From Candidatus Parcubacteria bacterium (lineage in GTDB: Bacteria; Patescibacteriota; Minisyncoccia; Phycocordibacterales; PALSA-1337), in assembly GCA_028286835.1 (NCBI GenBank), contig JAQBQT010000011.1:71246-129191 (forward strand): DNA of 57,946 nucleotides, in the 5' to 3' direction. Each line of letters begins with the position of its first letter. The stretch's first letter is position 1. Below the pieces are notes generated by a model that worked only from the letters and a program-made list of their open reading frames with translations, had not been told where the DNA came from and did not search any database. The translations under genes were made by a program, and so were the position numbers. Below are positions 287 to 43,999 of the stretch, piece by piece.

Positions 287-2317
<2,031 letters not shown>

Positions 2318-2324
2318 TCACATC

Positions 2325-2912
2325 CTATCCCTTTTTCGTCAATCGGAGGGCGCGTTCTACGGTCGTCGGACTCGATGTATCAGGGCCTGCGCTCGAAGTG
2401 CAGTGATTGTAGCCTCGGGAATCGAATATCATGTAATGGTTGCCTGAGGAGTCAAAACCGTCGTAGAGCGTGACCACGGCGCAGGTGCCATTGGCCAGAT
2501 TGAAGTTGAGCGTATTCGGCGTCTGGTAGACCTTATTGACGCCGCTCACCAAGAATGGAGGATATCCAGAAGACGCCAAGACGAACGGGCCGACGGTCAC
2601 GGTCTGGCTGACGCCGTTCAGCGAACCGCATGTCACCGTTGCTCCGGTCGTGCTTGAGATCGTTCCCCCATTCTCACCTGAATATGCTGCGCTCGCGCAT
2701 TCGATGCCCGTGTCGGCTGCATAGAAAGAATAGATGGAGTTGCGGGCGGACGCGGAGAGCTCGTACTGCTTAGTCGCCACAGAAAGGATGAAGACGGCGA
2801 CGCCAAGCACGAGGGCGGCAGTCAGAACCGCAAAAAGCAACGTGTAGCCGTTCTGGAAGGATCTTCGGGTGAGGCGCTGTGGTGTGAGATGATTCATATT
2901 ATCGCGTGGCAT
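2325..2912 (-). CDS. PilX-like minor pilin / pilus assembly protein
   Basis: GYTLLFAVL hydrophobic N-terminal helix lacking Glu5, followed by SFYAADTGIECA (PilX N-terminal pattern). Last gene of the minor pilin run. Confidence 0.7.
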   Translation of the reverse strand: MPRDNMNHLTPQRLTRRSFQNGYTLLFAVLTAALVLGVAVFILSVATKQYELSASARNSIYSFYAADTGIECASAAYSGENGGTISSTTGATVTCGSLNGVSQTVTVGPFVLASSGYPPFLVSGVNKVYQTPNTLNFNLANGTCAVVTLYDGFDSSGNHYMIFDSRGYNHCTSSAGPDTSSPTTVERALRLTKKG

Positions 2913-3432
2913 TTAGAAGCTCGGTTGATGATAATACCTGGTATGACACCGTTCCCTCGGTCCATTCCACCACCACGGTCAGCACACATTCGGCATCGCC
3001 AGCACCGCAGGGATTTCTTCCATCCTCATCGGCCATATAGAAATAGCGCGTGAAAGGAGTGTCGGATCCCGTGCTGCCATGATTGTAGTAATTTCCTGAA
3101 GTGAGCTTGAGCCGATAAGGGTTCGTAGCGCCTCCTGTAGCCACAGTGACTGTATCAATGGCGCTTGCGTCACAGTATGCGGAAGCATTGCAGCCCGAAA
3201 ATCCTGTGAGCCACAGATCGCCAGCAGCCAGATTGTTGTCGCGAAGATTCTTGATGACTTCGATGCTTTCCTGTGCGAGATATGAAGCGATCATCTGATC
3301 CCTTGAGGCCAGCGCGCCAGTAAGGCCCTTCGAGGCAATGGATAACGGGCCTGCGATCGCGATCATGAGAACGGTGATCGCGACGAGCGTCTCGACAATA
3401 GTGAATCCTTTTTGTGCGTTGATTTTCTTCAT
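2899..3432 (-). CDS. Type IV minor pilin (PilV-like)
   Basis: KG/FTIVETLVAITVLMIAIAG class III signal peptide. Start moved to the ATG of MKKINAQKG. Confidence 0.85.
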   Translation of the reverse strand: MKKINAQKGFTIVETLVAITVLMIAIAGPLSIASKGLTGALASRDQMIASYLAQESIEVIKNLRDNNLAAGDLWLTGFSGCNASAYCDASAIDTVTVATGGATNPYRLKLTSGNYYNHGSTGSDTPFTRYFYMADEDGRNPCGAGDAECVLTVVVEWTEGTVSYQVLSSTELLNATR

Positions 3433-3436
3433 GGAT

Positions 3437-4075
3437 TTATGGGGTTCGCAATGAGACTGCTGACTGCACATTGAAGTATGTCTTCACCTGTTCGCGCGCG
3501 CCCGCGTATCCGGACAAGCTCACAAAGACCAACGGGAATGTCGAGGCGGAGGTACCGAGCTGGTAATTCGTCAAGACAACATTTGCGGGGGCGATAGGCG
3601 CAAACGAGGCGGAATTGAAGGTATCTGCGCAATGGTTGCCTTTTGTCTTCTGCGCAGCCTTGCTCAATTGGTATGTACCATCGGAATTAGTTGTGAAGAG
3701 GTACGCGTATATCAGGCGGCACGGAGGATTCGAGGTGTAATCCGTATTTGCGGATTTAAAAATGATGAGCTGATTGTGCCCAGCCGAAGCGCATGCCTGT
3801 GCCGTATATGTCGTCGGGTTGGCAAGGGCTCCTGTAGAGGTCGTTTCGCAGCGGATAGTAGAACCCGTTCTCAACTCGCGAGACATCGCTTCGAGAGCGA
3901 AAGAGAGACCAACGACCGCGTCCTGGGTCGTCTGGGCTTTTTTATTCGCATCGACGATCTTGACCAGGGCAGCAAGCGCGACCACTGCGACGATCGAGAA
4001 AATCATAAGGGATACGATGATCTCGATGAGGGTGAAGCCGCGATTATGCTGGGTGCGAAGAGCGCTCATATTCAT
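3437..4075 (-). CDS. Type IV minor pilin (PilW-like)
   Basis: RG/FTLIEIIVSLMIFSIV prepilin motif. ATGA overlap with the upstream gene. Confidence 0.85.
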   Translation of the reverse strand: MNMSALRTQHNRGFTLIEIIVSLMIFSIVAVVALAALVKIVDANKKAQTTQDAVVGLSFALEAMSRELRTGSTIRCETTSTGALANPTTYTAQACASAGHNQLIIFKSANTDYTSNPPCRLIYAYLFTTNSDGTYQLSKAAQKTKGNHCADTFNSASFAPIAPANVVLTNYQLGTSASTFPLVFVSLSGYAGAREQVKTYFNVQSAVSLRTP

Positions 4076-4701
4076 TGGGTTTTGACCGATATCTGGCCGT
4101 TCTCGCGGATAGCTATGGTGCGGGTGCTGCCGTCCGTTCCCACGATGATGACTTCCGCATATGTATAGCAGGAAGACGCAGAGCCGTTCGCGCAGATCTT
4201 GGCATCAGGATTCGGGCGGACGAAGGAGACGTCGAGCTGGGTTATGTTATAGAAGGCACAAGTGGATCCGCTCCCGACGCAGATGCCCGAGCCTGCCCCG
4301 CTCTTTGTGGGAGCGATAGTGGCTCCCCGCGTTATGGAGTAAGTCGTAAGAGCACCGTCGCTGGAGCCGCATATGCCATCGGGCGCGCCGGCAGGAAATG
4401 CATCGGCATACAGGATGATATGCTTGTTATTCGACGTGACTGTGCCGCATGAGATGCCTCCTGGGCTGGTGCTGAAATCGATGGCATACGGCTGGCCGAA
4501 GGAATTGGCCGCGCCCGTATTCTTCACGCTCAATCCATAATTCTGGGCGGTATGGAGAGCGAGAGCGATATCGTATGCGGTGTCAGTGAGGAGGGTGCTC
4601 TGATTGAAGTTGCCGTATTTGGCCACGACCAAAGCCGTCATCGCGGCGAAGATGCCGATGGAGACTACGAGCTCGAGGATTGTAAAACCGCGATTCATCA
4701 C
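4072..4701 (-). CDS. Type IV minor pilin (FimT/GspH-like)
   Basis: RG/FTILELVVSIGIFA prepilin motif and C-terminal RTIAIRENGQI strand typical of FimT/GspH. Confidence 0.85.
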   Translation of the reverse strand: MMNRGFTILELVVSIGIFAAMTALVVAKYGNFNQSTLLTDTAYDIALALHTAQNYGLSVKNTGAANSFGQPYAIDFSTSPGGISCGTVTSNNKHIILYADAFPAGAPDGICGSSDGALTTYSITRGATIAPTKSGAGSGICVGSGSTCAFYNITQLDVSFVRPNPDAKICANGSASSCYTYAEVIIVGTDGSTRTIAIRENGQISVKTQ

Positions 4702-5510
4702 CTACTAGTATACCCGAAAAGGCTGATAAGCGTATTCACATCTATCACCCGTATGCCCGTGAGCAAGACGAGGTACATGGCAAGAATGAGATAGGGGCCG
4801 AATGGGATGGCGATTTTATGCTTGTACCGCTTGTACGTGATGATCATCCAGGCTATGCCGAATGCGGCGCCGATCCAGAATGCGAGGACGATCGCATTCA
4901 CTCCCGCGCTCATGCCGAGAATCCAGCCGATGCCCAGAGCGAGCTTCGCGTCCCCCAATCCCATCCATGTGCCGCGCGATGCCGCCCACAGGAGAGCGAA
5001 CGGCAGAGCAAGGGCAGGCCCGGCAAGAAGCGTGGCGAGGTGCGGCGCATGATAAAGCGCAGGCCCGCCGACAAAAACACTGAGGAGCGCCACGGCATCA
5101 AAGGCGTAGACGAAGGGATCGGGGATGATCTGGTGCTTGGCGTCATACGCTGCGATGACGACCAGGAGGCACGCTGTCAGAAGATATATGACAGTCGATA
5201 CAGCTGCCATAAGCGTTACCGGAGGAAACTTGATCAGTATGAGCGCAAAGACGCAGCCCGCGATGAACTCGACGAGCGGATACTGCCATGAGATCTTGCT
5301 TTTGCATTTCCTGCAGGCTCCCCGCAGGAACAGGAAGCTGAACAGCGGGATGAGCTCCATCCATCGGAGCGTCTTGCCGCAGGACATGCACATGGACCTG
5401 CCGCCTATCCCCTTCCCCGTATTGAAGCGCAGCGAGACGACATTGAGAAAGCTGCCGACGATCGTGCCGAAGATGAACGCGAAGACCGCCAGGAATGCCA
5501 GCTCTTGCAT
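4698..5510 (-). CDS. pilD: Prepilin peptidase (A24 family)
   Basis: GSFLNVV, RSMCMSCG...CRKCK zinc motifs, catalytic DAKHQIIPD and GLGDAKL aspartates, multiple TM helices. Confidence 0.95.
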   Translation of the reverse strand: MQELAFLAVFAFIFGTIVGSFLNVVSLRFNTGKGIGGRSMCMSCGKTLRWMELIPLFSFLFLRGACRKCKSKISWQYPLVEFIAGCVFALILIKFPPVTLMAAVSTVIYLLTACLLVVIAAYDAKHQIIPDPFVYAFDAVALLSVFVGGPALYHAPHLATLLAGPALALPFALLWAASRGTWMGLGDAKLALGIGWILGMSAGVNAIVLAFWIGAAFGIAWMIITYKRYKHKIAIPFGPYLILAMYLVLLTGIRVIDVNTLISLFGYTSR

Positions 5511-5516
5511 CGGGGG

Positions 5517-6077
5517 TTAATTCGGACCTACGCAATAGTCGACCGATGTGAGCGCGTTGCTGCAGTTGCTGTATGGAGGCGAGTTCGCAGCCTGCGACCA
5601 GCCGTTCGGAGCGGTATTCTGGGAGCTCGAAGGATCGGAAATGGAGGAAGCCGCAAGGCCTTTAGCGACAGCGGCATTCGGTGACTCAAGCTTGGCATGG
5701 AGGACGTAATTGACCCTCAGTCCAGTCGAAGTGATGCGGTAATATGTATAATCGTATGCGGCCTGGCTTGCACCGGCAGGAGGAACTGGGATTTGAGCGA
5801 TGTAGGTTCCGAGCGTCACGCCTGACGGGCATTTGGTGCTCGTCATCGTGGTCGCGAGAGTGGCCCCCGTAGGATATTCGCCGCAGCGATCCATGAAAAG
5901 CGCCAAGGCTAGCTGGAGCTGAGCCAGATCTGAAACGCGCTGAGCATCGCGAGCTTTGCCGCGCGATCCCGAAAGGTTTTTCAGGATTATTCCAGTAAGA
6001 AGGACGATTATGGTGATGACTACCAGCAGCTCCACGATAGTGAATCCCCGAGTCCTAGCCTGTGTGTAATATTTCAT
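5517..6077 (-). CDS. Type IV pilin / GspG-like pseudopilin
   Basis: RG/FTIVELLVVITII, ARDAQRVSDLAQLQLAL helix, C-terminal Cys pair. Confidence 0.9.
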   Translation of the reverse strand: MKYYTQARTRGFTIVELLVVITIIVLLTGIILKNLSGSRGKARDAQRVSDLAQLQLALALFMDRCGEYPTGATLATTMTSTKCPSGVTLGTYIAQIPVPPAGASQAAYDYTYYRITSTGLRVNYVLHAKLESPNAAVAKGLAASSISDPSSSQNTAPNGWSQAANSPPYSNCSNALTSVDYCVGPN

Positions 6078-6127: not shown

Positions 6128-8515
6128 TCATATCTTATGCACGCTGAAGAGGAGGAAGCCGGACTGTTCATCGTACAATTCAAGCTTGAAATGCGGATTA
6201 TTCGACAGGATATAGCCGAATGTGCGGTAGTCCTTGGAAGTCACGACATAGGAGGCGTGGAAATCCTCCAGAAGGCTTTGGGCTATCTTGTCCCCTTCCG
6301 TCTTTGCCCAGAGCTTTGTCGAAGTCGCCTGACGGAATGCCACGCGCTCCTGGGAGGATAGCTGAGGGCATGACTGATCTGCGCATACATATCCATCGTT
6401 CGCTATGTGGACCGACTTCCAGTACAGGCCTTTGTTGTATTCGTACATGAATCGCGGCTCAAGCCCCGAGCTGTAATAATCCTTCGGGCTCCAGTAATAG
6501 AGCTGAGGGAACCAGCTCCAGTTGGCTTCGAAAACGATGTCGCCAGGCTTCGAATTCCTGTCGAGCCAGCTTCCAACCTGATAGAACGAGAATGCCGATT
6601 GGCTGTAGCCGAGCTTCTGCTGAAGGAACAGCATGTTGCTCGCGAAGAGATACACGAGGACGATGGTGAGACCCGTCGCAAGGCTCCTTCTGATGAGGTC
6701 GGCACCCGTGACCTTGATAAGCCTACGCGCATAGTCGAACGAGAGCGCGATATAGAGCGCCGCGAAGAACGTGAAGTAGTCGCCGAAGCGCGCGCTCATG
6801 GTGATGGTCGAAAGGAAGAATCCTGCGGTGAGGACGAGCACGCTCGTCTGCAGATGCCTGCGCGCTTCCGGAAGCCCGGCGAAATAATCCGCGACCGGAG
6901 ACTGGTGCCATCTGTACCCTATGTAGCTATAGATATCGACGGAGAGCGCCGTCACGAATGCGGCGAATATGATGGCGTTGCCCTGGATGAAGTTGAAGAA
7001 GTCGGTCGGATACAGCTCTCCCCCCTCGCTTATAGCGACCTTCTTGCCGATGATGGTCTCCCAGTAGATCTTGACTAGCGTGTCCCAGATGAAGACGATG
7101 AAGCCGCCGGATCCGGATACCAGATATGTCGCAAGGATGGCAGCGACCGTGCCGAGAATGGCCGCGACGAGGTTCTTCCAGTCTGCCTTCTGGCGATAGA
7201 AAAGCTCTATAACATAGTAGACGAGGGCGACACAGACAGGCATGAAGAAGGTCGAGCTGTGCCAGAAGAGATACGCGAAGGAGAGCGCGAAGACGGCCCA
7301 GTGCTTCCTGCGGTAGAGGAAGTACAGAAGGAGGAGCAGGAGCGACGGAGCGAGCGCGTACGGGCGCGACAGGAAGAAGCGCCAGACTGAGTTGACGTTG
7401 GTTATGGCGAGGGTGAGCATGGTCCACACGAAGGGATTCCTGATGGAGAACTGCCTGAGGCACCAATAGAGGAGGGTGAACGCGCCGGCGGCTATGAAGA
7501 CCGCATAGAGCTTGATGCCGAGGAACAGCGGCGCGATGAATGTGAACGGCAGGACGACCAGATAGAACAGGAAGTTATAGTACATGAAGTAATCATTCCC
7601 CTGCGCCATGTTGGAGAAGTAGATGGCCTTGAAATTCTGGAATGAGCCGAAGAAGCCGTTATGCCACATCTCCTGCGCGAAGCGGAAATGGAAGAAGTGG
7701 TCGTCCCCGCTCGACAGCGTGCTCACGGAAAAGTACACCGCAAAGAATACGGCGAAAGTCAGTGCGAAAGTCAGGAATACCGGCATCCAGGTGAGCCGCG
7801 ACGGCATGGTATCGGCGATAAAGAGCGTCACGATGCGCGAGAAGCAGCGCCATCCCTGTCGCCAGTCCATCTTCTTGCCTTCCTCATTGCCTCTCGGCTC
7901 ATACCGTATCGGCACTTCGATCACTGCGCCCTTCTTGACGAGAGCATGCGACAGCTCGATGACATCGTATACGAAGTCGTTGCTGGGCAGCGCCAGCAAT
8001 TCAGCACCATACGATCGCGGGAAGACCTTATAGCATGTGGCGACGTCCGTCAGCTTCGTCCTGAAGAAAAAATTGAATACGCGCGTGATGAGGAGGCCGC
8101 CATAGTAGTAGATCCTCTTCAGGGACACCTTGTTCATGCCAAGCGTCCGGGAGCCGAACACCACGAATGTGGACCCTGAAACGATGGGTGCCAGGAGCGC
8201 CTTGTAGTCTGCTGGATCATATTCGAGATCTGCGTCCTGTATGAGGACGTAATCGCCCGTGGCGACCTTGAGCCCCTCCTTGAGAGCGGCTCCCTTGCCT
8301 CCGTTCACTGCGCACGAGACGACCGTGCAGCCTTCGATGCCGGCGAGTATCTCGCGGGTGCCGTCGCTCGAACCGTCATCGACGACGATCATCTCCTTGC
8401 TCCAGCCTGGTGGCAGCGGCGCGGCGATCACGCGCTCGAGCACCTTCCGGATAGTCTTGCTTTCGTTAAAAACGGGAATTACAACCGATACTTTCTTTCC
8501 TGTTATATCCGACAT
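6128..8515 (-). CDS. Fusion of an N-terminal GT2 (polyprenol-phosphate glycosyltransferase, DPM1-like) and a C-terminal multi-TM GT-C-like domain
   Basis: [44 protein letters not shown] (GT2). Followed by about 12 hydrophobic segments with a GDDHFFHFR loop and a soluble tail with [21 protein letters not shown]. Start set to ATG 8515 (MSDITGKK). Confidence 0.8.
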
Positions 8516-8542
8516 AGAGCACAATGTAGCATCTCCGGCCCC

Positions 8543-8579
8543 AAAAACAAAACCCCCGACCAGGAGGCAGGGGGTTTTG
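8543..8579 (-). terminator. Intrinsic terminator after the tandem pilins
   Basis: Minus strand CAAAACCCCC-TGCCTCCTGGTC-GGGGGTTTTG followed by TTTTT. Confidence 0.8.
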
Positions 8580-8596: not shown

Positions 8597-9073
8597 CTAG
8601 TTACAACCGGCTACGCCGTTGCTGTTGACAACATCACTCTGATTCGTCTTGCCTGTGGAATCTATGCAGAAGTACGTGGATGCATTCGACTTCATCCTGC
8701 CGCGAATAGCATATCCCGTATTGTTTGGAGCGACAGCAACGAAAAGCGCACCTCCTTGGTTGGTCGCGTCTGCATTGAGCTGGTTCAAAGCTGTGAAGTC
8801 AGGTCCTGTAGTAAGGACACATGTTGCAAACGTTGCCGCGCTGGTGTTGCTAGCAATACACGTTCCAGCTCCGTTCAGGTCAGGGTAACCAAGACCATTG
8901 AAACCAGATTCAATGGCCGTCCTTGCCTGCTGGACATCGGAGATGATGCGAGTGTCGCTGCCCTTGGCGCGAGCCGAATTGAGGGAGACGAGCACGATGG
9001 ACGCCAAGATACCGATGATGGCGATGACGACGAGCAATTCGATAAGAGTGAAACCACGAGTGAGCTTTTTCAT
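8597..9073 (-). CDS. Type IV major pilin candidate A
   Basis: RG/FTLIELLVVIAIIGILASIVL motif, four Cys, own terminator. Confidence 0.92.
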   Translation of the reverse strand: MKKLTRGFTLIELLVVIAIIGILASIVLVSLNSARAKGSDTRIISDVQQARTAIESGFNGLGYPDLNGAGTCIASNTSAATFATCVLTTGPDFTALNQLNADATNQGGALFVAVAPNNTGYAIRGRMKSNASTYFCIDSTGKTNQSDVVNSNGVAGCN

Positions 9074-9212: not shown

Positions 9213-9710
9213 TTAGTTACAACCTGCTACGCCTTTGCTATTAACAACATCGTTCTGATTCGTCTTGCCTGTCGAATCGACGCAGAAGTATATACTTGAA
9301 TTCGAAGAAAGTTTGCCCCTTATAGCATATGAAGTGTTGTTTGATCCATTTTGACCGACAGCAACAAGAATGGCACCTCCTTGGTTGGCCGCGTCTGCAT
9401 TGAGTTGGTTCAAGACTGTGAAGTCAGGTCCTGTCGTAAGGATACATGTTCCAAACGGTGCAGTACTCGTGTTGCTAGCAATACAGGTTCCGGTTCCATT
9501 CAGGTCAGGAAATCCGAAGCCGTTGAAACCGGATTCAAGAGCTGTTCTTGCCTGCTGGACATCGGAGATGATGCGGGCATCCTTGCCTTTGTTCCTCGCT
9601 GAGTTGAGAGAGACGAGGACGATAGAGGCGAGAAGGCCGATGATGGCGATAACGACGAGCAATTCGATAAGAGTGAAACCTTTGGTAAATGCGCTGGTAA
9701 GTTTTTTCAT
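9213..9710 (-). CDS. Type IV major pilin candidate B (paralog of A)
   Basis: KG/FTLIELLVVIAIIGLLASIVL motif. About 27 differences from pilin A over 152 aligned residues. Start at ATG 9710 with TATAAT 10 nt upstream. Confidence 0.92.
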   Translation of the reverse strand: MKKLTSAFTKGFTLIELLVVIAIIGLLASIVLVSLNSARNKGKDARIISDVQQARTALESGFNGFGFPDLNGTGTCIASNTSTAPFGTCILTTGPDFTVLNQLNADAANQGGAILVAVGQNGSNNTSYAIRGKLSSNSSIYFCVDSTGKTNQNDVVNSKGVAGCN

Positions 9711-9751
9711 ATGTGTGCTAATTATACTCGAGTGATAATAATGCGGCAATC

Positions 9752-10966
9752 CTAGCTTGTGGATGAAGCTATGCTATAGATCGGCACAAGGACGGCGGCG
9801 AGCAATACGGCCACGCCGGCGCCGAGGCCTACGATCATGGCCGGTTCGATGAGCGACACGAGAGAATCGACAGCCACTGACACCTCCCTATTATAGAAAT
9901 TGGACATGGTCTTCAGGATCTCGCCGACTTCGCCGGCCTCCTCGCCGACCTTCATCATCTGGATCATGATGCCCGGCACTTCCCTGCGGTTGCCGTCGAG
10001 CGACTCGGAAAGCGTCTTGCCTCCCTTCACGGATTCCGTCGCATCATTCAGGATCTGCTGGTACACCTTGTTATCGATGACGGCGGACGTGAGCTGGAGT
10101 GCCTGCACCATTGGGATGCCGGATGAAAGCATCGTATTCATGTTATCCGCGAAGCGGGAGAGGTAGAGCTTCTTGAAGAGAGTATTCACGTACGGGATCT
10201 CGAGCTTGAAGCTGTCGAAGGCTATCTTGCCCCGCGGCGTGCGGATGAAACGGACCAGGAAAAAGCCTGCGACGATGAGCGCGGCAAAAAGGATGAAGCC
10301 GTAGGAGACCAGGAAGTTGCTGATGCCGATGATGACTTTTGTATATACGGGAATGGTCGCGCCGGATTCGAGGAGGATAGGCGTTATCTTCGGGATGACC
10401 ATGGTGAACATGAGGATCATGACCACCACGAACGTGGCGATGACGAAGGCCGGATAGATAAGGGCTCCGCGGACCTTGGAGGTGAGCTCATAGGCGCGGT
10501 CGAGGTAGTCGGCGAGATAAAGGAACGTATCATTGAGCTTGCCTGACTCTTCGCCGGCCTTCACCATGTTCACATAAAAATCAGAGAAGACCTTGGGATG
10601 CTTGGAGAGGGCCTGCGAGATGGAGCTTCCGGCCTGGAGATCGTCGGCGACGACCGCGAGCTTGGATGAAAGGGCGTGATTCTCCGTTTCCGCGCCGAGA
10701 AGGCGGAAGACGCGCAGCGCCGAGATCTGTGCTTCGAAGAGGGTCGAGAGCTGGCGGGACAGGATGACGATGTCCTTCGTCGAAACGCGCTCGAAGAAGC
10801 TGATGTTCATCGACAGGAACGAGCCGCTCTTGCCTGCTTCCTTGACGGAGGTGAGGGCCAGGCCGCGGCGCTGGAGCGAAGAGATCGCGATGTCCACATT
10901 CACGGCATCGATGGAGCCGGTCTTCTTGGCTCCTGTCGTGTCTACGGCTTCATAGTTGAAGAGCAT
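9752..10966 (-). CDS. pilC: Type IV pilus platform protein (T2SSF family)
   Basis: ILSRQLSTLFEA, GEESGKL, ALIYPAFV, MMKVGEEAG, LIEPAMIV. Confidence 0.95.
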   Translation of the reverse strand: MLFNYEAVDTTGAKKTGSIDAVNVDIAISSLQRRGLALTSVKEAGKSGSFLSMNISFFERVSTKDIVILSRQLSTLFEAQISALRVFRLLGAETENHALSSKLAVVADDLQAGSSISQALSKHPKVFSDFYVNMVKAGEESGKLNDTFLYLADYLDRAYELTSKVRGALIYPAFVIATFVVVMILMFTMVIPKITPILLESGATIPVYTKVIIGISNFLVSYGFILFAALIVAGFFLVRFIRTPRGKIAFDSFKLEIPYVNTLFKKLYLSRFADNMNTMLSSGIPMVQALQLTSAVIDNKVYQQILNDATESVKGGKTLSESLDGNRREVPGIMIQMMKVGEEAGEVGEILKTMSNFYNREVSVAVDSLVSLIEPAMIVGLGAGVAVLLAAVLVPIYSIASSTS

Positions 10967-10973
10967 GGCAATA

Positions 10974-12032
10974 TTATATCATCCTCTCGAGCACTTTCGC
11001 ATTCATGGAATTGGTATAAGCGTTCTCTACGGTGATCTCCCCTGCGCGCACGAGCTCGGCAAGAGAGCGGTTGAGGTCGATCATGCCTTCCTGGGAGGAC
11101 GTTTCGATGACGGTGTCTATCTCATGGATGCGGTTCTCACGGATGAGGTTCGAAACGGCGTTATTATTGATGAGGAGCTCGTAGGCCGGAATGAGTCCAC
11201 CAGAAATGCGCGGAATGAGGCGCTGGGAGAATATTCCCGTCATGGAGCCGGCGAGCTGGATGCGGATCTGAGCCTGCTGATCGGCCGGGAATGAGTCGAT
11301 GATGCGGTTTATGGTCTGCGCAGCGTTGTTGGTATGCAAAGTCGACAAGATGAGGTGGCCTGTCTCAGCGGCAGTGACGGCCGTCGATATCGTCGTGATG
11401 TCGCGCATCTCGCCCACCATACAGACGTTGATATCCTCGCGGAACATGGAAACGAGGGCGGCCTCGAATGACGGCGTGTCTATGCGCACTTCGCGCTGGT
11501 CGATGATGGATTTCTTGGAATCGAATTGGAACTCGATCGGGTCTTCGATGGTGAGGATGTGCTCGGTCCTGGTCTGATTGATGATCTCGACCAGGGTCGC
11601 GAGAGTGGTCGTCTTTCCCTGTCCGATCGGACCCACCACCAGGAAGAAGCCCTGCGGCTTTCTGGTGAAGCTCTCGAGGATGGGCGGGAGATTGAGCTCA
11701 TTCAGCGTGCGGATGACCTTCGGGATGAGACGGAGCGCGATGGAGAGCGCGCCCTGGCGATAAAAGACGTTGCCGCGGAATCGGGCCTGCGTCACTGCGT
11801 ATGAAAAATCAGTATCCTTGTTAGCCTTGAGGAGCACTTTGCTTTCCGGCGTGAGGAAGGCGTCTACGAAGCCGAGCATGTCATGTTCGGAGAGGACTGA
11901 CTTCTTGACCAGCGGGATGAGGTTCCCCGTCACGCGGATGATGGGCGGGCGGCCCGTCGCAAGATGGAGATCGGATGCTCCTTCTTTGATCACCAGATTC
12001 ACCAAGTCGTCGATCTCTTTTTTGTAGTCCAT
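10974..12032 (-). CDS. pilT: Type IV pilus retraction ATPase
   Basis: ASDLHL, GPIGQGKTTT Walker A, TIEDPIE, QREV, VGEMRD, AAETGHLILSTLHTN. Confidence 0.95.
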   Translation of the reverse strand: MDYKKEIDDLVNLVIKEGASDLHLATGRPPIIRVTGNLIPLVKKSVLSEHDMLGFVDAFLTPESKVLLKANKDTDFSYAVTQARFRGNVFYRQGALSIALRLIPKVIRTLNELNLPPILESFTRKPQGFFLVVGPIGQGKTTTLATLVEIINQTRTEHILTIEDPIEFQFDSKKSIIDQREVRIDTPSFEAALVSMFREDINVCMVGEMRDITTISTAVTAAETGHLILSTLHTNNAAQTINRIIDSFPADQQAQIRIQLAGSMTGIFSQRLIPRISGGLIPAYELLINNNAVSNLIRENRIHEIDTVIETSSQEGMIDLNRSLAELVRAGEITVENAYTNSMNAKVLERMI

Positions 12033-12036
12033 GGGA

Positions 12037-12423
12037 TTATGCTTTTTTAGCGGCTAATATTTTTTCGACTTCGGCCAGCACCTCTGACGGTATGCTCGTG
12101 GCTTTGACGATGTATCCGTCGACATTGAGCTTCTTGGCCCGGGAGATGTCGTCAGGATTTCCCTGATTCGTGAGCATGACCACCTTCGCATTCGGCGCAA
12201 GCTTCTCCTTCCTGACTGCCGACATGAATTCAAGCCCGTCAGGGCCCGGCATGACGATGTCGACCATCATGATGTCCGGTACGAACCCGTCCCGGAGGAC
12301 CTTGAGGCCGGACTCCATCGAGTCGCCCGTCTTGACGTCGTAGCCCGCCTTGGAGAACTTGAGGGCATACATGTCGAGAAGGAATTTGTCATCGTCAACG
12401 AAGAGGGCTTTTTTAGGCTGCAT
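12037..12423 (-). CDS. Single-domain response regulator (receiver)
   Basis: VDDD acidic pocket, DIVMPG phospho-Asp, LTN and KA conserved residues. No output domain. Confidence 0.92.
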   Translation of the reverse strand: MQPKKALFVDDDKFLLDMYALKFSKAGYDVKTGDSMESGLKVLRDGFVPDIMMVDIVMPGPDGLEFMSAVRKEKLAPNAKVVMLTNQGNPDDISRAKKLNVDGYIVKATSIPSEVLAEVEKILAAKKA

Positions 12424-12441: not shown

Positions 12442-14169
12442 TTACAATTTGTTGACTTCCTCGAGGGGGATGATCTTCTGGAAGGCCTTGATGATCGCGT
12501 CCTCTTTGATGGTTATCATGCCCTTCTGGCGCAGGAGCCTGCTCACTTCTGTCTCGGTGGCGCTTCGGAGGACGGCCTCCTCGACTTCCTTGTCCATGGC
12601 GAACATCTCGAACACGGCCATGCGCCCGCGAGTTCCCTTTGGGGCGGACGGGGTCGGCTTGATGCGGTACAGGGTGTCGCCGAACGGGATGTCCTTCTTG
12701 AACTCTTCCGGCAGATCCTCGAATTGCTTGTCGATCATGGCTTTGATGCTGCCTTCGACTTTGACCGCTTCGGCTGCTTCGGGGACGAGCATGCCCACGA
12801 GGCGCTGAGCGATGCCGAGGACCAAAGTCGGGGCGATCAGATACGGATCGACGCCCATATCGATGAGGCGCGGGATGATGCCGGCGGCGTTGTTGGTGTG
12901 CAAGGTAGAGAATACCAGGTGACCTGTAAGGGCGGCTTGGACGGCGAGCTGGGCGGTCTCCTTATCGCGGATCTCACCCACCATGATGATGTCAGGGTCT
13001 TGGCGCAATGTCGTACGGAGGCCGGAGCTGAAGTCATAGCCGATCTCGGGTCGCACCTGGGATTGCGACACGCCTTCGATCTGATATTCCACCGGGTCTT
13101 CGAGGGAAAGCACGTTCTCGGCCTCGCGATCCATCTCGCTCAGGATGGAATAAAGCGTGGTGGATTTTCCGGAGCCTGTCGGACCGGTAACGAGGATCAT
13201 GCCGTATGGACGGTCGATAGCCTTCCTGAGCATCTCGAGGTTGCGCGGCGAAAGCCCGATCTGGTCGATCTTGCGGACGCCTTTGGCCTGGTCGAGAATA
13301 CGCATCACGACCTTCTCGCCGTAGTAGGCCGGGAATGTGGAGACGCGGAAGTCGACGCGGCGGCCGTCGATGCGCGCGGAGAAGCGGCCGTCCTGCGGCT
13401 TGCGGCGCTCGTCGAGGCGCATATTGGAGAGCACTTTGATGCGGGCGACCACGGCCGAATGCACCTGAGGCGGCAATACGAGCGAGGTGTTGAGCGTGCC
13501 ATCGACGCGGAAGCGCACGCGGATCTTGTCGCGCATGTGCTCGATGTGAACGTCGGACGCTTCCCCTTCCACGGCATATCGGACGATAGTGGCCACGATC
13601 TTGATGACCGGGGCATCCTCGATGATGACCGTGTCCTCTTCCTCCTTGCCCTTCGCGGGTTCGCCCGGCTTGCCTCCCTTCTTCACGTCATCGGTCTCTA
13701 CGGAGAGCTCGGTCTCGAGCTCGGAAAGCGCGCGCGTCACTTCGCCCGTGAGGCCTTTGTACATGCCGAGCACCTTGGTGAAGTCGGCGAGAGTGATGAG
13801 GAAGATCTTGTACGGGATGTTCTTCTTCGCGACAAGGAAGTTGAGTGCGTCGCGCGCCTCCATATTGTCAGGATCGACGATGCCGACCTCAAGCGTGCCC
13901 TCCTTGAGGCCGACCGGCACGAAATGATAGTGCTCCGCGGATTCCTGGGGGATGTATTCAAGGGCTTCGAACGGAACGCCCTCCTCGGTGATGGCGCGCA
14001 CGGGGATATTCAAAAATTCGCCGCGAGCTTCGGTGATCTGCTCGGGCTTGAGCCCGCGGGCCACAAGAACCTCCTCAAGATTGACGCCGCTTCCCGTTGC
14101 TTTGCGGATTTCGCGCAGATCGTCTTTGGTGATGAGGTTTTTTTGTAGGAGTATGTCTAGTACGCTCAT
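12442..14169 (-). CDS. pilB: Type IV pilus assembly ATPase (GspE/PilB)
   Basis: ASDVHIE, RRKPQDGR, GPTGSGKSTT, LEDPVE, RQDPDIIMVGEIRD, LTGHLVFSTLHTN. Confidence 0.96.
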   Translation of the reverse strand: MSVLDILLQKNLITKDDLREIRKATGSGVNLEEVLVARGLKPEQITEARGEFLNIPVRAITEEGVPFEALEYIPQESAEHYHFVPVGLKEGTLEVGIVDPDNMEARDALNFLVAKKNIPYKIFLITLADFTKVLGMYKGLTGEVTRALSELETELSVETDDVKKGGKPGEPAKGKEEEDTVIIEDAPVIKIVATIVRYAVEGEASDVHIEHMRDKIRVRFRVDGTLNTSLVLPPQVHSAVVARIKVLSNMRLDERRKPQDGRFSARIDGRRVDFRVSTFPAYYGEKVVMRILDQAKGVRKIDQIGLSPRNLEMLRKAIDRPYGMILVTGPTGSGKSTTLYSILSEMDREAENVLSLEDPVEYQIEGVSQSQVRPEIGYDFSSGLRTTLRQDPDIIMVGEIRDKETAQLAVQAALTGHLVFSTLHTNNAAGIIPRLIDMGVDPYLIAPTLVLGIAQRLVGMLVPEAAEAVKVEGSIKAMIDKQFEDLPEEFKKDIPFGDTLYRIKPTPSAPKGTRGRMAVFEMFAMDKEVEEAVLRSATETEVSRLLRQKGMITIKEDAIIKAFQKIIPLEEVNKL

Positions 14170-15884: not shown

Positions 15885-16985
15885 CTACTCCAACTCTGAC
15901 AAGCGGCGAAGCACGGCACCGATCGCGACCGTGAATTCAGGACCTGCAGTCGCGAACTCCTCCGCCAGGAACGCCGGCGTCTCGAGCTTGCTGAACGGAT
16001 CGGCATACGTGACATCGGCCTGAAAGCTTATCTTGGCCAGATCCGTGAAGCCCTTGAGGAGGACTCCTCCGCCGGTGAGGATGACCTTGCTCACGTTCTT
16101 CTGGTACTTTTTCTGATAGTTGAGGAGGGTCGCGTTCGCTTCATAGAAGATGTAGTCGAGGTTGACCGTGATGATCTCGGTGAGCTCCTTGTATTCAGGG
16201 CCGCCCTTCAGGCCCTTCATGCGCTTCATGTTCTCGGCGTCAGCGACGGAAATGGAAAGGGCCTTGGAAAGCGCGAGAGTAATATCCTGGCTTCCCTTGT
16301 TGATGATGTGCGACGCGCGCAGGACGCCGCGCTCCACTATATATAGCTTCGTCGAGCGGGCGCCCATATCGATGATCATGGCCGTGCCCACTCCCTGCTC
16401 GAGGACTGCGCGGATGGAGCTGAAGATCTCGATCTCATAGAAGCTCGGCTGGAGGCCGCTCGCATTCATGACCGACTGGAATTCATTCAGGTACTCGTTA
16501 TGGATGGCGACAACGAGGACGTCGCGGCCGGCCTTATCGGCCTGGGCCTGATCGGCTTCGTTCTCATATGTCTCTTCTTTAGGGATGACCGAGAAGTCCA
16601 GGAAGACTTCGCTCAATGGAACTGGGATATATTTGCGGGCTTCGAGCGATACGATGTCAGCGAGCTGCTTGTCGGGAACTGGCGGGACGGTTATGAATGT
16701 GATGAGGCTGGACGAGAGCGGGAGCGCAGCGCCGCAGGAAGTGGTGGTGGTCTTGGATTCGCGCAGGAGATCGCGGATCGCCTCCGAGATCTTTTCGGGC
16801 GGCAAGGAAACCGCGCGGCCGATCTCAACGCCGCCATACGGGCCGAGGGCGAGCTCTCCGTAGGTTTCGAGGACCGCCTTGCCGCGCTTCTTTTTGATCT
16901 GGATGACCTTGATGGAGGAAGATCCCACATCAATGCCTAGCACGCTGGACTCTTTTTTGAACAAAGAGGAAAGAAATGAGGCCAT
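15885..16985 (-). CDS. pilM: Type IV pilus assembly protein PilM (actin-like)
   Basis: LGIDVGSSSIK, EARKYIPVP, IIDMGARST, ILTGGG. Start set to ATG 16985 behind an extended -10 (TGCTATACT). Confidence 0.95.
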   Translation of the reverse strand: MASFLSSLFKKESSVLGIDVGSSSIKVIQIKKKRGKAVLETYGELALGPYGGVEIGRAVSLPPEKISEAIRDLLRESKTTTTSCGAALPLSSSLITFITVPPVPDKQLADIVSLEARKYIPVPLSEVFLDFSVIPKEETYENEADQAQADKAGRDVLVVAIHNEYLNEFQSVMNASGLQPSFYEIEIFSSIRAVLEQGVGTAMIIDMGARSTKLYIVERGVLRASHIINKGSQDITLALSKALSISVADAENMKRMKGLKGGPEYKELTEIITVNLDYIFYEANATLLNYQKKYQKNVSKVILTGGGVLLKGFTDLAKISFQADVTYADPFSKLETPAFLAEEFATAGPEFTVAIGAVLRRLSELE

Positions 16986-17033
16986 GAAGCCAGTATAGCA
17001 GATATTCAATGGGAAATTGTATACTTACCGCAC

Positions 17034-24347: not shown

Positions 24348-25130
24348 ATGTCTCATCAAAATACCACTCTAAAAAAGGTCAGCGTACTGATACCCTGCTA
24401 TAACGAAGTGGGTGGTATCGCAAACGTAATAAAGAGTTTCCCTTTCGAAAAGGCGCTCTCTCAGGGGTTTTTATTCGACATCATCGTCATCGACAATAAC
24501 TCGACAGATCAGACTGCGGATATTGCCCGTGCACATGGGGCTACTGTCCTCTTCGAACCTATGAAGGGCAAGGGTAATGCGATGAAACGCGGCTTCTATT
24601 CCATACCGACGGACACGGACTACGTAGTCATGCTAGATGGGGACGATACATATCGTCCCGAAGAGATCCTCCGCCTTATAGAGCCTCTTCATTCAGATTT
24701 CTGCGACGTTGTGATCGGTTCCCGCCTCAGCGGACGCATTATGAATGGTTCCATGAACAACCTCAACCGAGCGGGTAACTGGATCTACTCCCATTTGGTG
24801 CGCTATTTCTATAAGGTGAATGTCACAGACGTTCTCACAGGTTACTTCGCCTGGAAGAAATCTGCTCTCGAAGACCTCAGACCACACCTCTATTCTCAGG
24901 GCTTTGCCATTGAGATGGAGATGGTCACTAAGATGGCAAAATTGAATCAGCAAATCTGTTGCGTGCCTATCAGTTATCACATTCGCGCTGGAAGGACTAA
25001 TTTGAGCCCCGTACGCGATGGCATCCGTATCCTTTGGATGTTCACAAAGAACCTTTATTGGGCTCCCACTATCCCTACAAAGAAATCACTCGAAGAGTCT
25101 AAATTCGTCTCACAATTGCAGCAAGGTTAA
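24348..25130 (+). CDS. GT2 glycosyltransferase (polyprenol-phosphate glycosyltransferase-like)
   Basis: VSVLIPCYNE, VIDNNSTD, GKGNA, MLDGDDTY, VIGSR, DVLTGY, FAIEMEM. Confidence 0.92.
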   Translation: MSHQNTTLKKVSVLIPCYNEVGGIANVIKSFPFEKALSQGFLFDIIVIDNNSTDQTADIARAHGATVLFEPMKGKGNAMKRGFYSIPTDTDYVVMLDGDDTYRPEEILRLIEPLHSDFCDVVIGSRLSGRIMNGSMNNLNRAGNWIYSHLVRYFYKVNVTDVLTGYFAWKKSALEDLRPHLYSQGFAIEMEMVTKMAKLNQQICCVPISYHIRAGRTNLSPVRDGIRILWMFTKNLYWAPTIPTKKSLEESKFVSQLQQG

Positions 25131-25140
25131 CATCGTTCCG

Positions 25141-28100
25141 ATGGAGTCTTTTACAGGAAAAAAAATAGTCATAGTGGCCCATCACTATCCGCCACATATC
25201 ACTGGCGTAGGTTTCGTAGCTCAGAACCATGCCCGCCGTCTCGCAGCACTTGGTCATAAGGTAACAGTCATAACGAGCGACACTGGCCCGATGGAGAAAG
25301 ACGCAGTACAAGACGGGGTGCGAGTCGTTCGAATCAAGGCTTGGAATATCACGGAAGACTGGAATGCGCCCTTCCCTCTTTTTTCGCCGACCCTAGCATT
25401 CACCCTCTCCAAATATATTCGGGATGCAGACATTGTGCATGTGCACGATTCTTTTTATATCAGTTCATTCTTTGCAAGCGTTATAAGCTGGATATACCGC
25501 AAGCCGCTACTCCTTACACAACACGTAGCCATGATTGCCCATCCGAGCAAAATCATCGTTGCGATACAAAAAATAGTATATGCAACGACCGGAAAAATAA
25601 TTTTTTCCTTAAGCAAGCGCATATTTGTTTTCAATAATAGGATCGAGAATTTTCTTTTAGAAAAAGGTGTTTTGCAGGACAAGATAATAAGCCTATTCAA
25701 TGGCGTCGATACGGAGGTCTTTCGCCCTGCCGCCGGCGATGAGAAAAAAAATTTAAGGAAGAAGTTCAATCTTAGCCTCGAGAAGAAGATCGTGCTTTTC
25801 GTGGGAAGATTCGTCCCCAAAAAGGGCTTTGATAAAGTACTTAGACTCGGAAGCAGCGAGTATCAAGTCGCGTGCGTCGGAGGCGAGGAGTCAAAAGAGA
25901 AAATAGAAGGCGATGTGGTGTTCCTCGGCAAAGTCGACCAGAGCAAACTCGCTGAGATATATCGTGCAGCAGACATATTCCTGCTTCCATCCGAAAGCGA
26001 AGGCTTCCCACTCTCCGTACAGGAAGCCATGGCTTCAGGATTGCCGATCATCACCACGGACGATCCTGGCTACGAAAAATACCATTTCGACAGACAGAAC
26101 ATGCATCTCATAGACAATACGGATATCGAATCGATACGAAAAATCGTACTGCAAACATGTAGAGATGAGAAGATTCTTCAGAGGATGTCGACATATTCAG
26201 AGCGATACGCTAAGGAGAACTTCAACTGGGATAAATCTATAGCCAAGCTCGATGGCATATATTCAGAGTTAATTGGTACGAACAGCGGTAAGAAACATAT
26301 AACCGTCGTCTCACCGTATTTCTATCCAAAAATCGGAGGCTTGGAGAATATCGCTTATACTACAGCGCGGAATCTTCACCAAAGCGGCATCTACAGGGTA
26401 AGTATCATCACAAGCAATCACACTGGAAAGGAATATGTGAAAGAGACGATCGACGGCATGATCGTTCATAGATTGCCTATACAGTTCATATTATCGAATA
26501 GCCCGGTCAATCTCACATGGTACTGGAAAATCAAGCGCATTTTCAAGGCGGATCGGCCTGACCTCATTCATGTCCATTCCCCTGTCCCGTATATAGCAGA
26601 CATGGCTGCATATGCAGCCGGAAAGACGCCCGTAGTTATCACATACCACTCGGGCAGCATGCGCAAGAATAAATGGCCTGTAGATATCCTCATCGACCTT
26701 TATGAGAAGGTCTTCCTGGTAGCCCTATTCAAAAAAGTTGTGGCTATCGTCGCATATTCACCAGAATTCATTGAGAAGGAACTGAGGCCATTCAAGGAAA
26801 AAACATTCTATATATCCCCAGGCGTCGATTTGAATAGATTTACACCGACCCCGCTCTCCCAGAATAAGGTCGTCACCTTCGTGGGCCGTATGGAGCACGC
26901 AACCAAATGGAAAGGTGTCGAGACCCTTCTGAAAGCCGTAAGCATTTATGCGAAGAAGGACCCTACCGTCCGGTTGAGGCTTGTCGGCACAGGCGACGCC
27001 ATAGAGCACTACAAGAAGATGGCTTTTGACCTGAATATCGGCTCAAATGTGGTCTGCACAGGACCCAAATTGGGTGGTGCTTTGACAGAAGAATACCAAA
27101 GGGCCGATGTCGTAGTGCTTCCTTCCACTTCCAATGCAGAATCATTTGGAATGGTCTTGGTCGAAGCAATGGCTTCAGGTCGACCAATCATTGGTTCGAA
27201 TATCGGCGGCATCCCACAGCTTATAGATGACGGCAAAAACGGCCTGCTTGTAGCCCCAGGCGACGAAGCAGCCCTCGAACAAGCAATTGAAAAAGTGCTT
27301 ACAGATAAGAAGCTGGCATCTACATTCGCTGAGCGATCTCTGGTTAAAGCCCGAGAGTTCAATTGGGCGATCCAAGTGGAGAAGTACCAGAATCTATTTA
27401 AAGAAATTCTCAAGGTAAAGAGCAAGAAAGTCGCGCTCGTGACTGACGCTCTGTATCCATACAACAAAGGAGGCAAGGAAAAGAGAATATACGACATCAG
27501 CACTCGACTAGCTGCACGCGGATACGACGTGACTGTGTATTCGATGAAGTGGTGGAACGGTCCTAAGAAGATCACCGAGAACGGAGTCAAACTATATGGC
27601 ATAAGCCCTTATTTCCCTCTCTACGAAGGCAAGCGCCGTTCTATAAAAGAAGGCGTGCTTTTCTCCCTGCATGCGCTCAAGCTGCTTTGGGAAGACTTCG
27701 ACATCATCGAAGTCGACCATATTCCCCATCTCGTGCTTTTTACAGTCAAGATCGTATGCGTTATTAAAAGAAAGAAGATGATCGCAACATGGCACGAAGT
27801 ATGGGGCAAAACGTACTGGAAGAAATATCTCGGAGCAGCAGGGCTTATAGGATACTGGATAGAAAAAGTAAGTTCGAAGCTTCCTGACATCATCATCTCT
27901 GTTTCTGAGCATACCACTGGAGCATTAAAGAAAACTCTGAGTAGAGAAAAAAACGTTGTTACAATCTCAAATGGGCTGGACGTCATCGGGACACGGACGG
28001 GTCTCACGAAGAGCAATGGTGCGGATATCATATTCGCAGGCCGATTATTGGCTCACAAGAACATCGACATACTTTTGCACGCAATCGCTATCCTAAAAGC

Positions 28101-43930: not shown

Positions 43931-43999
43931 TCGAGTATATATTACATTACGTTTTCTTTTATACCTCGTCAACCTGATGTCTTCATGTATAATTGCAGC

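Follow-up and report, generated by a model that had tools for sequence, protein, structure and literature searches.

In a 57,946-nucleotide stretch from a Candidatus Parcubacteria bacterium (contig JAQBQT010000011.1, positions 71,246 to 129,191; this whole stretch is called the window below), we analysed a gene whose product joins a family 2 glycosyltransferase (GT2) to a membrane glycosyltransferase of the GT-C fold. A type IV pilus operon is present in full on the minus strand of the window, and within it the fusion gene is located directly after two tandem major pilin genes and directly before the gene for a third pilin. The protein is probably a lipid-linked two-step glycosylation enzyme that acts on the major pilins, whatever the linkage, and we are rather confident that the major pilin is the target. 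The sugar may well be N-linked at the Asn-X-Ser/Thr sequons of these pilins, as their sequence statistics suggest, and O-linkage is a possibility that we rate lower. An earlier reading of the window made from the sequence alone (the sequence-only reading) had proposed that donor synthesis and transfer are fused here to glycosylate the neighbouring pilins. This proposal is supported by the GT-C fold, the linkage to pilins, the GT2 matches and the sequon comparison.

The two halves of the fusion protein

The open reading frame is real and lies in the pilin cluster where the sequence-only reading had placed it. An alternative start, a TTG at 8524, would yield a protein of 798 amino acids; the ATG at 8515 agrees with the N-terminal length of 29 fused homologs. 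The gene and the parts of its product are:

6128-8515, minus strand: GT2 + GT-C fusion reading frame, ATG start, 795 amino acids, stop codon at 6128-6130
7811-8515, minus strand: cytoplasmic GT2 domain, residues 1-235, resembling polyprenyl-phosphate sugar synthases
7808-7864, minus strand: amphipathic juxtamembrane helix, residues 218-236, from the secondary structure and local confidence of the model
6608-7798, minus strand: GT-C membrane module, residues 240-636, about 11 membrane passes
7667-7708, minus strand: motif of the first external loop, residues 270-283
7511-7513, minus strand: K335, invariant
7364-7366, minus strand: R384, invariant
7259-7264, minus strand: W418-H419 pair, W418 invariant, H419 at least 90% conserved
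7007-7027, minus strand: EGGELYP, residues 497-503, in a long external loop of somewhat lower model confidence
6779-6790, minus strand: RFGD, residues 576-579, at the outer membrane boundary, R576 and D579 invariant
6131-6607, minus strand: external C-terminal alpha/beta domain of the model, residues 637-795
6494-6523, minus strand: conserved strand-then-helix motif, residues 665-674, at the start of the external domain
6383-6385 and 6368-6370, minus strand: invariant cysteine pair C711 and C716 in the external domain

The GT2 half matches Pfam PF00535 over residues 10-164 (E=5.5e-29; 101.7 bits against a cutoff of 23.3 bits) and contains the GT2 motifs DDGSSDG (46-52), NGGKG (71-75), QDADLE including the DxD (93-98) and GSR (121-123). 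Across 30 fused proteins D47, S49, D51, N71, G73, K74, Q93-D94-A95-D96 and G121-S122-R123 are invariant. Among PDB sequences it matches ArnC, DPMS, GpgS and GtrB, and the same enzymes lead a Foldseek search with the full-length model (predicted local distance difference test score, pLDDT, 86.9; predicted TM-score, pTM, 0.70), with ArnC at 1e-10, DPMS at 6e-10, GtrB at 3e-8 and GpgS next. The complete DPM1-like GT2 domain that had been claimed is present. In NCBIfam, AglJ ranks first (E=1.5e-32) and ArnC second, and both stay far below their ortholog cutoffs (113 vs 325 bits for AglJ, 50.6 vs 529 bits for ArnC). AglJ is the dolichyl-phosphate hexose synthase of Haloferax, and ArnC, DPMS and GtrB each load one sugar onto polyprenyl phosphate; GT2 enzymes of this type generate single-sugar lipid-monophosphate donors. 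After the juxtamembrane helix, a short low-confidence hinge (238-240) connects the two halves.

Residues 240-795 were modelled with an alignment of 99 sequences (pLDDT 95.6, pTM 0.93). All 24 top Foldseek matches in the PDB are GT-C enzymes, with E-values from 3e-8 to 8e-3 and TM-scores of up to 0.63. STT3 of yeast and human leads these matches (E=3e-8 to 5e-7, TM-score 0.57-0.63), AglB matches with E=6.5e-7 and PglB with E=2.7e-6, and DPY19 is likewise among the top matches (TM-score 0.58-0.63). Further matches are ALG12, ALG9, ArnT and AftA, and Pmt4 is found as a weak one (E=8e-3). The sequence-only reading had made its proposal depend on such a comparison, and a GT-C fold has been found, with STT3, AglB and PglB as the best matches among solved structures.

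From the helices of the model and the positive-inside rule we infer that the N-terminus is inside, that about 11 membrane passes and one external amphipathic helix follow and that the C-terminus is outside; the inside N-terminus fits the cytoplasmic placement that is forced for the fused GT2 domain. The soluble tail described earlier stands as an alpha/beta domain of about 160 amino acids, while the transmembrane helices, then counted as about 12, become these passes plus the external helix. The first outer-loop motif is present as described, and its D271 and D272 are invariant in 99 homologs, at the hallmark position of GT-C enzymes, which makes them the candidate catalytic acidic pair; a distant relative (P0240) has a single Asp at this position. 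A candidate second acidic catalytic site is the loop with E497 and E500: E500 does not vary in either the 30 fused proteins or the 99-sequence family, and E497, likewise invariant in the former, is at least 90% conserved in the latter. R576/D579, K335, R384 and the W418-H419 pair are candidate ligands of the lipid phosphate and the sugar. The invariant polar residues (D271/D272, K335, R384, W418, E500, R576/D579) all lie on the predicted outer face, and this clustering is, as modelled, the layout of an active GT-C enzyme.

It might be argued that the membrane part has no catalytic activity and acts as a scaffold or as a factor for pilus assembly or stability, since non-enzymatic pilin accessory proteins such as TfpY/TfpZ exist in Pseudomonas (PMC11841053). 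We regard this as most unlikely, since the acidic pair at the canonical catalytic loop is invariant in 99 sequences, with P0240 as noted above, conserved basic and acidic residues are located on the outer face, and the module occurs again and again together with, or fused to, a GT2 that makes donors.

The tail had been likened to the WWDYG segment of oligosaccharyltransferases. A conserved motif is indeed found there, at residues 665-674 (W666 invariant; W668, F669, L672, Y673 and Y674 at least 90% conserved), but it reads NWSWF, and WWDYG itself is absent. The invariant C711 and C716 may form a disulfide.

Pilin linkage and cassette content in relatives

Clustered at 50% identity, the family defined by the GT-C module comprises about 2,550 clusters, 561 of them at E<=1e-30, and its named members all come from metagenome-assembled genomes of the Patescibacteria type, a few of which carry obviously wrong bin labels. 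About one third of the close homologs are fused to a GT2, the others are stand-alone proteins of about 570 amino acids, and distant fused forms were found, too. In our literature search on pilin glycosylation, oligosaccharyltransferases and GT2 + GT-C fusions in Patescibacteria, we found no description of this family.

We annotated 28 species-level loci with BLAST, phmmer, a signal-motif scan and Pfam. A type IV pilin is located within 1.4 kb of the GT-C gene in 24 of the 27 evaluable loci, with homologs that are 28-79% identical, and the usual site of the GT-C gene is immediately after the major pilin gene, between PilC and PilD. This neighbourhood survey was the second point on which the earlier proposal had been made to depend, and the linkage to pilins holds. 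Implausible bin labels ('uncultured Saccharibacteria', 'Bdellovibrionales', 'Fimivivens', 'Bathyarchaeia', 'Nitrosopumilus') were seen on contigs with a pilus synteny of the Paceibacteria type (L007-L014, L016, L021-L024, L026-L027, P0035 and P0074); we advise against relying on the taxon names given there.

The gene is not a fixed part of the pilus operon. With a PilC alignment as query, we recovered from metagenome contigs 43 loci that have the order PilC, pilin, PilD, minor pilin, LigA and enough downstream sequence for a judgement. GT-C is present in only one of them (L037, together with a methyltransferase and a GT2), and no GT2 was found in the PilC-PilD interval of the other 42. Since only one of 43 syntenic pilus loci contains it, the GT-C gene is an accessory cassette, like tfpO/tfpW of Pseudomonas. 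GT-C-positive loci are spread over at least nine places of the PilC tree. In two loci, genes of the IS200-like type (Y1 transposase) adjoin the cassette (L012:11623-12453 and L022:6992-7669), which is consistent with gain and loss of the cassette at this site.

The acceptor might also be a non-protein molecule of the surface, for example a polysaccharide of the wall, a polymer of the teichoic-acid type or a lipid, with the position in the pilus operon reflecting co-expression or a chance insertion. Most characterised bacterial systems of GT2, flippase and GT-C modify glycans or lipids (PMC11194591), and the window also contains a large glycan-synthesis island. In addition, one subclade (L023, L024, L028) speaks against pilins as the general acceptor: it has no neighbouring pilin, and its GT-C gene is located beside two genes for GH130-like proteins (beta-mannoside phosphorylase family) of about 640 amino acids (e.g. 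L024:4355-8212). This suggests another acceptor or a mannose-based donor economy in the subclade. We nevertheless consider a non-protein acceptor unlikely for the window, since the pilin neighbour is found in 24 of 27 loci across deep divergence, the cassette comes and goes at exactly this site, and the presence of GT-C goes along with a change of composition that is confined to the major pilin.

The cassettes differ in what accompanies the GT-C gene. A GT2 is fused, adjacent or divergent to it in 20 of the 28 loci, and it is this coupling that supports a predicted lipid-phosphate-linked sugar donor for the GT-C enzyme. The stand-alone GT2 partners have about the length of the fused catalytic domain (about 230-250 amino acids), which suggests that they lack a membrane anchor of their own, and GT2 and GT-C may act together in a complex also where they are not fused. 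Of the 28 loci, 7 encode a GtrA-like flippase and 4 a DedA/VTT-like protein.

A frequent third member is an S-adenosylmethionine-dependent methyltransferase, found in 17 of the 28 loci. Several lineages encode it in one protein with the GT2, and these GT2-methyltransferase proteins have 410-630 amino acids. The presence of this gene points to methylation of the sugar in such lineages. Where the GT2-methyltransferase is long and divergent, a DedA/VTT-like gene was seen after GT-C in place of GtrA. The DedA/VTT family is tied to undecaprenyl-phosphate recycling, which fits a lipid-carrier mechanism. The assignment is based on a sub-threshold Pfam VTT match for the L024 gene (26.7 bits vs a cutoff of 33.9 bits) and, for the L019 gene, which has no Pfam match, solely on similarity to the L024 gene. 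The genes in question are:

L002, L004-L006, L009, L011-L013, L018, L019, L021, L023-L028, L037: methyltransferase (e.g. L005:11637-12365, L024:8271-9806)
L019:3438-4037, L024:11548-12162, L028:9041-9673 and L023 (fragment): DedA/VTT-like genes

Among the loci compared, the window has the most compact cassette. The gap between the fusion gene and the gene of the third pilin is 50 nucleotides, so that there is no room for the GtrA or methyltransferase genes of the relatives. We found no methyltransferase or DedA-like gene in this cassette, to which the search for these two was confined. The sequence-only reading had spoken of a one-protein machine, and both enzymatic halves are indeed fused, but the machine is not complete in one protein, since the lipid-linked sugar must still be flipped.

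The cassette content also bears on whether the protein could be a true oligosaccharyltransferase that transfers a pre-assembled oligosaccharide en bloc to the pilins, with the fused GT2 merely priming or branching the glycan. This would fit STT3, AglB and PglB as the best fold matches, the AglJ-like GT2 (AglJ primes a multi-sugar glycan in Haloferax), the frequent methyltransferase, and the GT4-rich glycan genes with a Wzx-like flippase at 24-44 kb of the window. However, the cassettes of the relatives never contain glycosyltransferases beyond one GT2, the glycan island is located 16 kb away and has a different GC content, and we found no link between island and cassette. En bloc transfer therefore appears quite unlikely.

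Sequons of the major pilins and the type of linkage

The proposed acceptors are the two pilins encoded directly upstream of the fusion gene, which are tandem paralogs with 79% identity to each other; the pilin encoded directly downstream is given for comparison:

9213-9749, minus strand: major pilin paralog 1, 178 amino acids, six N-X-S/T sequons (N84, N93, N134, N137, N138, N150), no Trp
8597-9073, minus strand: major pilin paralog 2, 158 amino acids, four N-X-S/T sequons (N76, N117, N130, N144), no Trp
5517-6077, minus strand: third pilin, 186 amino acids, two sequons

The totals of six and four sequons had been given correctly before, with the labels of the two pilins swapped. The tandem pilins keep different sequons, for instance NGT/NGA and NQN/NQS at matching positions, and such sequon turnover recurs among close orthologs.

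The sequon signal was evaluated in the mature globular part of the major pilins, with a strict negative set of loci in which the PilC-PilD interval is fully sequenced. The density of N-X-S/T per 100 amino acids is 2.47 in GT-C-positive and 1.15 in GT-C-negative loci (p=3e-6 per locus). Compared with the shuffled expectation, sequons are enriched in the positive set (z=+3.0) and not in the negative set (z=-0.7). Ser or Thr is found at position +2 of Asn more often than expected in the positive set (observed/expected 1.28, p=0.006; 0.92 in the negative set), and of the offsets -3 to +3 it is the +2 position alone, and the positive set alone, that shows such an enrichment. Read in the forward direction, the positive set contains 99 N-X-S/T, compared with 61 of the reverse motif. 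When loci were paired by PilC identity, 15 of 19 positive loci lay above their nearest negative neighbour (p=0.005), and 10 of 12 did so when each neighbour was used once (p=0.009).

The excess is confined to the major pilins: PilinC-like pilins, minor pilins, PilB/T/M, PilC, PilD and LigA of the positive loci show no increase in sequons. The major pilins of positive loci also contain more Asn (8.9% vs 6.0% in negative loci). GC content as the cause of this excess was considered and rejected: the positive loci have the higher GC content (median 0.485 vs 0.429), the Asn content of PilC is equal (3.6% vs 3.5%), and the sequon excess holds in both GC strata. Two deviations were seen outside the pilins. 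LigA of the window and its orthologs is depleted in N-X-S/T in both sets compared with shuffled sequences (ratio about 0.45, z=-3.4 and -5.0), and the cytoplasmic PilB/T/M of GT-C-negative loci are mildly enriched (z=+4.4); both are probably effects of conserved motifs.

The sequence-only reading had discounted the sequons in part as a result of composition. Within the GT-C-linked pilins alone this is how they look, most single pilins not being enriched beyond their composition, and on this basis we had provisionally rejected N-linkage. The syntenic GT-C-negative control reversed this judgement: the comparison of positive and negative loci reveals an about twofold density that is specific for the +2 position and for the major pilin. 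Two other types of site were rejected as candidates. The extended sequon of the PglB type, D/E-X-N-X-S/T, is not enriched (6 of 99 sequons), and C-mannosylation of the DPY19 type, which needs Trp as acceptor, was rejected on the lack of Trp in both major pilins.

If the target is the same but the sugar is attached to Ser/Thr, the two-step machine would work like TfpW or the actinobacterial and eukaryotic PMT enzymes. Several observations point this way: the GT2 domain implies a polyprenyl-phosphate monosaccharide donor as used by TfpW and PMT, the gene is placed as that of TfpW is, and both proteins have a DD motif in their first external loop (bioRxiv 10.1101/2020.04.19.049825), the pilins consist of about 22% Ser+Thr, WWDYG is absent, and Pmt4 and ArnT are among the fold matches. 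On the other hand, Ser+Thr content does not differ with and without GT-C (22.3% vs 21.4%, p=0.17), whereas Asn content and N-X-S/T density differ strongly. Furthermore, the fold match to PMT (E=8e-3) is far weaker than the one to STT3 (3e-8), and no TPR or MIR domain was found. O-linkage is a possible, though less likely, form of the same activity.

A number of points weigh against N-linkage or against a self-sufficient enzyme. The first is the relation to the known oligosaccharyltransferases. The GT-C half had been called STT3/AglB-like, and while the fold agrees with this, the sequence does not: residues 240-795 have no match in Pfam, NCBIfam or PDB sequences, and Pfam stays empty at E<=10 for this query and 19 relatives, with no STT3 (PF02516), PMT, PMT_2, MIR or TPR. 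The profile of the 99-sequence family recovered no GT-C enzyme and no oligosaccharyltransferase among all PDB sequences. With hhalign, PglB of C. jejuni and an alignment of 16 PglB sequences, which is a narrow one (Campylobacter only), gave probabilities of 0.4% and 2.7%, so that no profile similarity to PglB is seen. The family consensus lacks WWDYG at the comparable strand-helix position, and this motif reads the +2 Ser/Thr in all known N-oligosaccharyltransferases. Moreover, single-sugar lipid-monophosphate donors usually serve O- or C-glycosylation or the decoration of glycans, and not N-glycosylation, in bacteria and eukaryotes.

The pilins themselves give further reason for doubt. No sequon site is conserved across distant pilins, the GT-C-linked pilin of L019 has no sequon at all, and the +2 enrichment is modest and would be borderline after correction for 12 offset tests. 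The positive and negative sets come from different searches, and some phylogenetic confounding remains despite the paired test. Finally, tblastn found no GtrA-like sequence in the 58-kb window. As a side note to the profile searches, the distant relative P0240 carries the UniRef name 'RgtA/B/C/D-like domain' and has no Pfam match here.

Taking the Asn reading as the preferred one, the pathway might run as follows. The cytoplasmic GT2 domain would use a nucleotide sugar to load polyprenyl (undecaprenyl) phosphate in the inner leaflet with one sugar, as expected from its homologs. The lipid-phosphate sugar would then be flipped outward, in relatives perhaps by the GtrA-like protein, with the DedA-like protein possibly acting in flipping or recycling. 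At the outer leaflet the GT-C half would bind the flipped donor via the D271/D272 loop, the E497/E500 loop and the conserved basic residues, and would attach the sugar to both major pilins, on their globular domains, at a stage at which these pilins are still anchored in the membrane and not yet assembled into a pilus. The acceptor would most likely be the Asn of N-X-S/T, as the statistics suggest, in a minimal pathway resembling the archaeal route of AglJ and AglB, and the fusion of the halves would couple donor synthesis to transfer. This could, as we tentatively suggest, be a form of bacterial N-glycosylation that has escaped recognition: a family with the oligosaccharyltransferase fold, but with neither WWDYG nor a sequence relation to STT3/PglB, would place a single sugar from a lipid-monophosphate donor, supplied by its fused AglJ-like domain, on Asn-X-Ser/Thr of pilins, in a minimal, mobile and archaeal-style system. 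On this reading some lineages, including the one studied here, may need no dedicated flippase.

Known systems, genomic surroundings and significance

The pilin arabinosyltransferase TfpW of P. aeruginosa group IV resembles the fusion protein in several respects (bioRxiv 10.1101/2020.04.19.049825). Both are GT-C enzymes encoded by a strain-variable gene immediately downstream of the major pilin gene, and both have an inside N-terminus, about 11 helices, a large external C-terminal domain and, in the first external loop, a DDx motif that is essential in TfpW. The donor of TfpW is a single sugar on polyprenyl phosphate, and TfpW has a GtrA-like protein as its partner (same source). This likeness concerns position and layout as published. 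The external domain of TfpW is a TPR domain, that of the fusion a small alpha/beta domain with a Cys pair. The TfpW donor comes from a route of DPPR synthase, DprE1 and DprE2 encoded elsewhere, whereas a GT2 of the DPM1/GtrB type is fused or adjacent here, and TfpW O-links and polymerises arabinofuranose, whereas the pilin statistics here favour Asn sequons.

The same logic of a GT2 donor synthase, a small flippase and an outside GT-C enzyme is found in GtrA/GtrB/GtrC, CsbB/GtcA/YfhO and ArnC/ArnEF/ArnT (PMC11194591). These systems consist of separate proteins, and their substrates are O-antigen, teichoic acids or lipid A. In the fusion, by contrast, donor synthase and transferase form one polypeptide, and the proposed target is a protein. 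Their GtrA-type flippase has no counterpart in the window by tblastn and is present in seven related cassettes, and the GT-C half belongs to no annotated family.

STT3, AglB and PglB are the closest enzymes by the fold of the GT-C half, and AglJ is the best NCBIfam match of the GT2 half. In archaea, AglB takes its sugars from lipid-monophosphate donors, and its substrates for N-glycosylation include type IV pilins and archaellins. The differences are NWSWF in place of WWDYG, a shorter protein with about 11 predicted membrane passes compared with 13 membrane helices, and the D/E at position -2 that PglB requires and only 6 of 99 sequons have here. PMT with Ppm1 and DPY19 are likewise GT-C enzymes that glycosylate proteins, and their donor, a polyprenyl-phosphate monosaccharide, is the product of a GT2 of the DPM1 type. 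PMT enzymes have Pfam PMT/PMT_2 and MIR domains, none of which was found in 10 family members at E<=10, and the fold match to Pmt4 is weak; DPY19 needs the Trp that both major pilins of the window lack. The closest system is GtrABC/ArnC-ArnT by logic, TfpW by position and target, and STT3/AglB by fold and sequon signal.

The remaining genes of the pilus operon, in the order of transcription, and the elements upstream of the fusion gene are:

15885-17009, minus strand: PilM, the first gene, followed by three small genes
12442-14169, minus strand: PilB
12037-12423, minus strand: response regulator
10974-12032, minus strand: PilT
9752-10966, minus strand: PilC
4698-5510, minus strand: prepilin peptidase (PilD)
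2325-4701, minus strand: three minor pilins and a fourth small gene without N-terminal methylation motif
287-2305, minus strand: LigA, listed last, after the minor pilins
8543-8578, minus strand: intrinsic terminator after the second pilin gene, AAAACCCCC, a 12-nucleotide loop, GGGGGTTTT, then GTTTTT
8523-8531, minus strand: extended -10-like element TGCTACATT, overlapping the alternative TTG (8524-8522)

All sequence features quoted by the sequence-only reading were found in their places, including TGCTACATT 7 nucleotides before the ATG. This element is a mere consensus-like match, and a promoter scan gave no call there. The terminator at 8578-8543 had not been mentioned. A GGAG at 8536-8533 is located 8 nucleotides upstream of the alternative TTG. 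The strong terminator followed by GGAG and TTG suggests high transcription of the pilins and attenuated read-through into the glycosylation gene.

The glycan-synthesis island at 23883-43972 has a GC content of 0.44-0.47, compared with about 0.55, and plus-strand genes predominate in it. The island could be a surface-glycan locus that was gained by horizontal transfer. Besides further GT4 genes it contains:

24348-25130: second DPM1-like GT2, 30% identical to the GT2 of the fusion
25018-28539: triple GT4 protein of 1173 amino acids
32018-34393 and 40316-42664: two DUF2206 membrane proteins of about 790 amino acids
37899-40319: SH3 + GH5-like protein
42647-43972, minus strand: Wzx-like flippase

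An hhalign comparison of the GT-C half with the window's own DUF2206 membrane protein was negative.

For attachment to other cells and life on them, type IV pili are the main known tool of the ultra-small Patescibacteria. The one experimental study of Patescibacteria pili that we found merely predicts pilin glycosylation and names no enzyme (PMC11623550). The fusion protein and its GT-C family are a concrete enzyme candidate for this predicted modification. In addition, the roughly 2,550 clusters extend the GT-C enzymes by a family that had no annotation, and the protein is a natural fusion of a donor maker and a donor user. A compact enzyme with few or no partner genes would also be of interest for glyco-engineering. 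The on/off occurrence of the cassette is the pattern expected for surface variation under phage or host pressure. The bacterial types of N-glycosylation that we know of are PglB and the cytoplasmic NGT enzymes; there is a substantial chance that the family described here represents a new one, and it would do so if the Asn reading is true.

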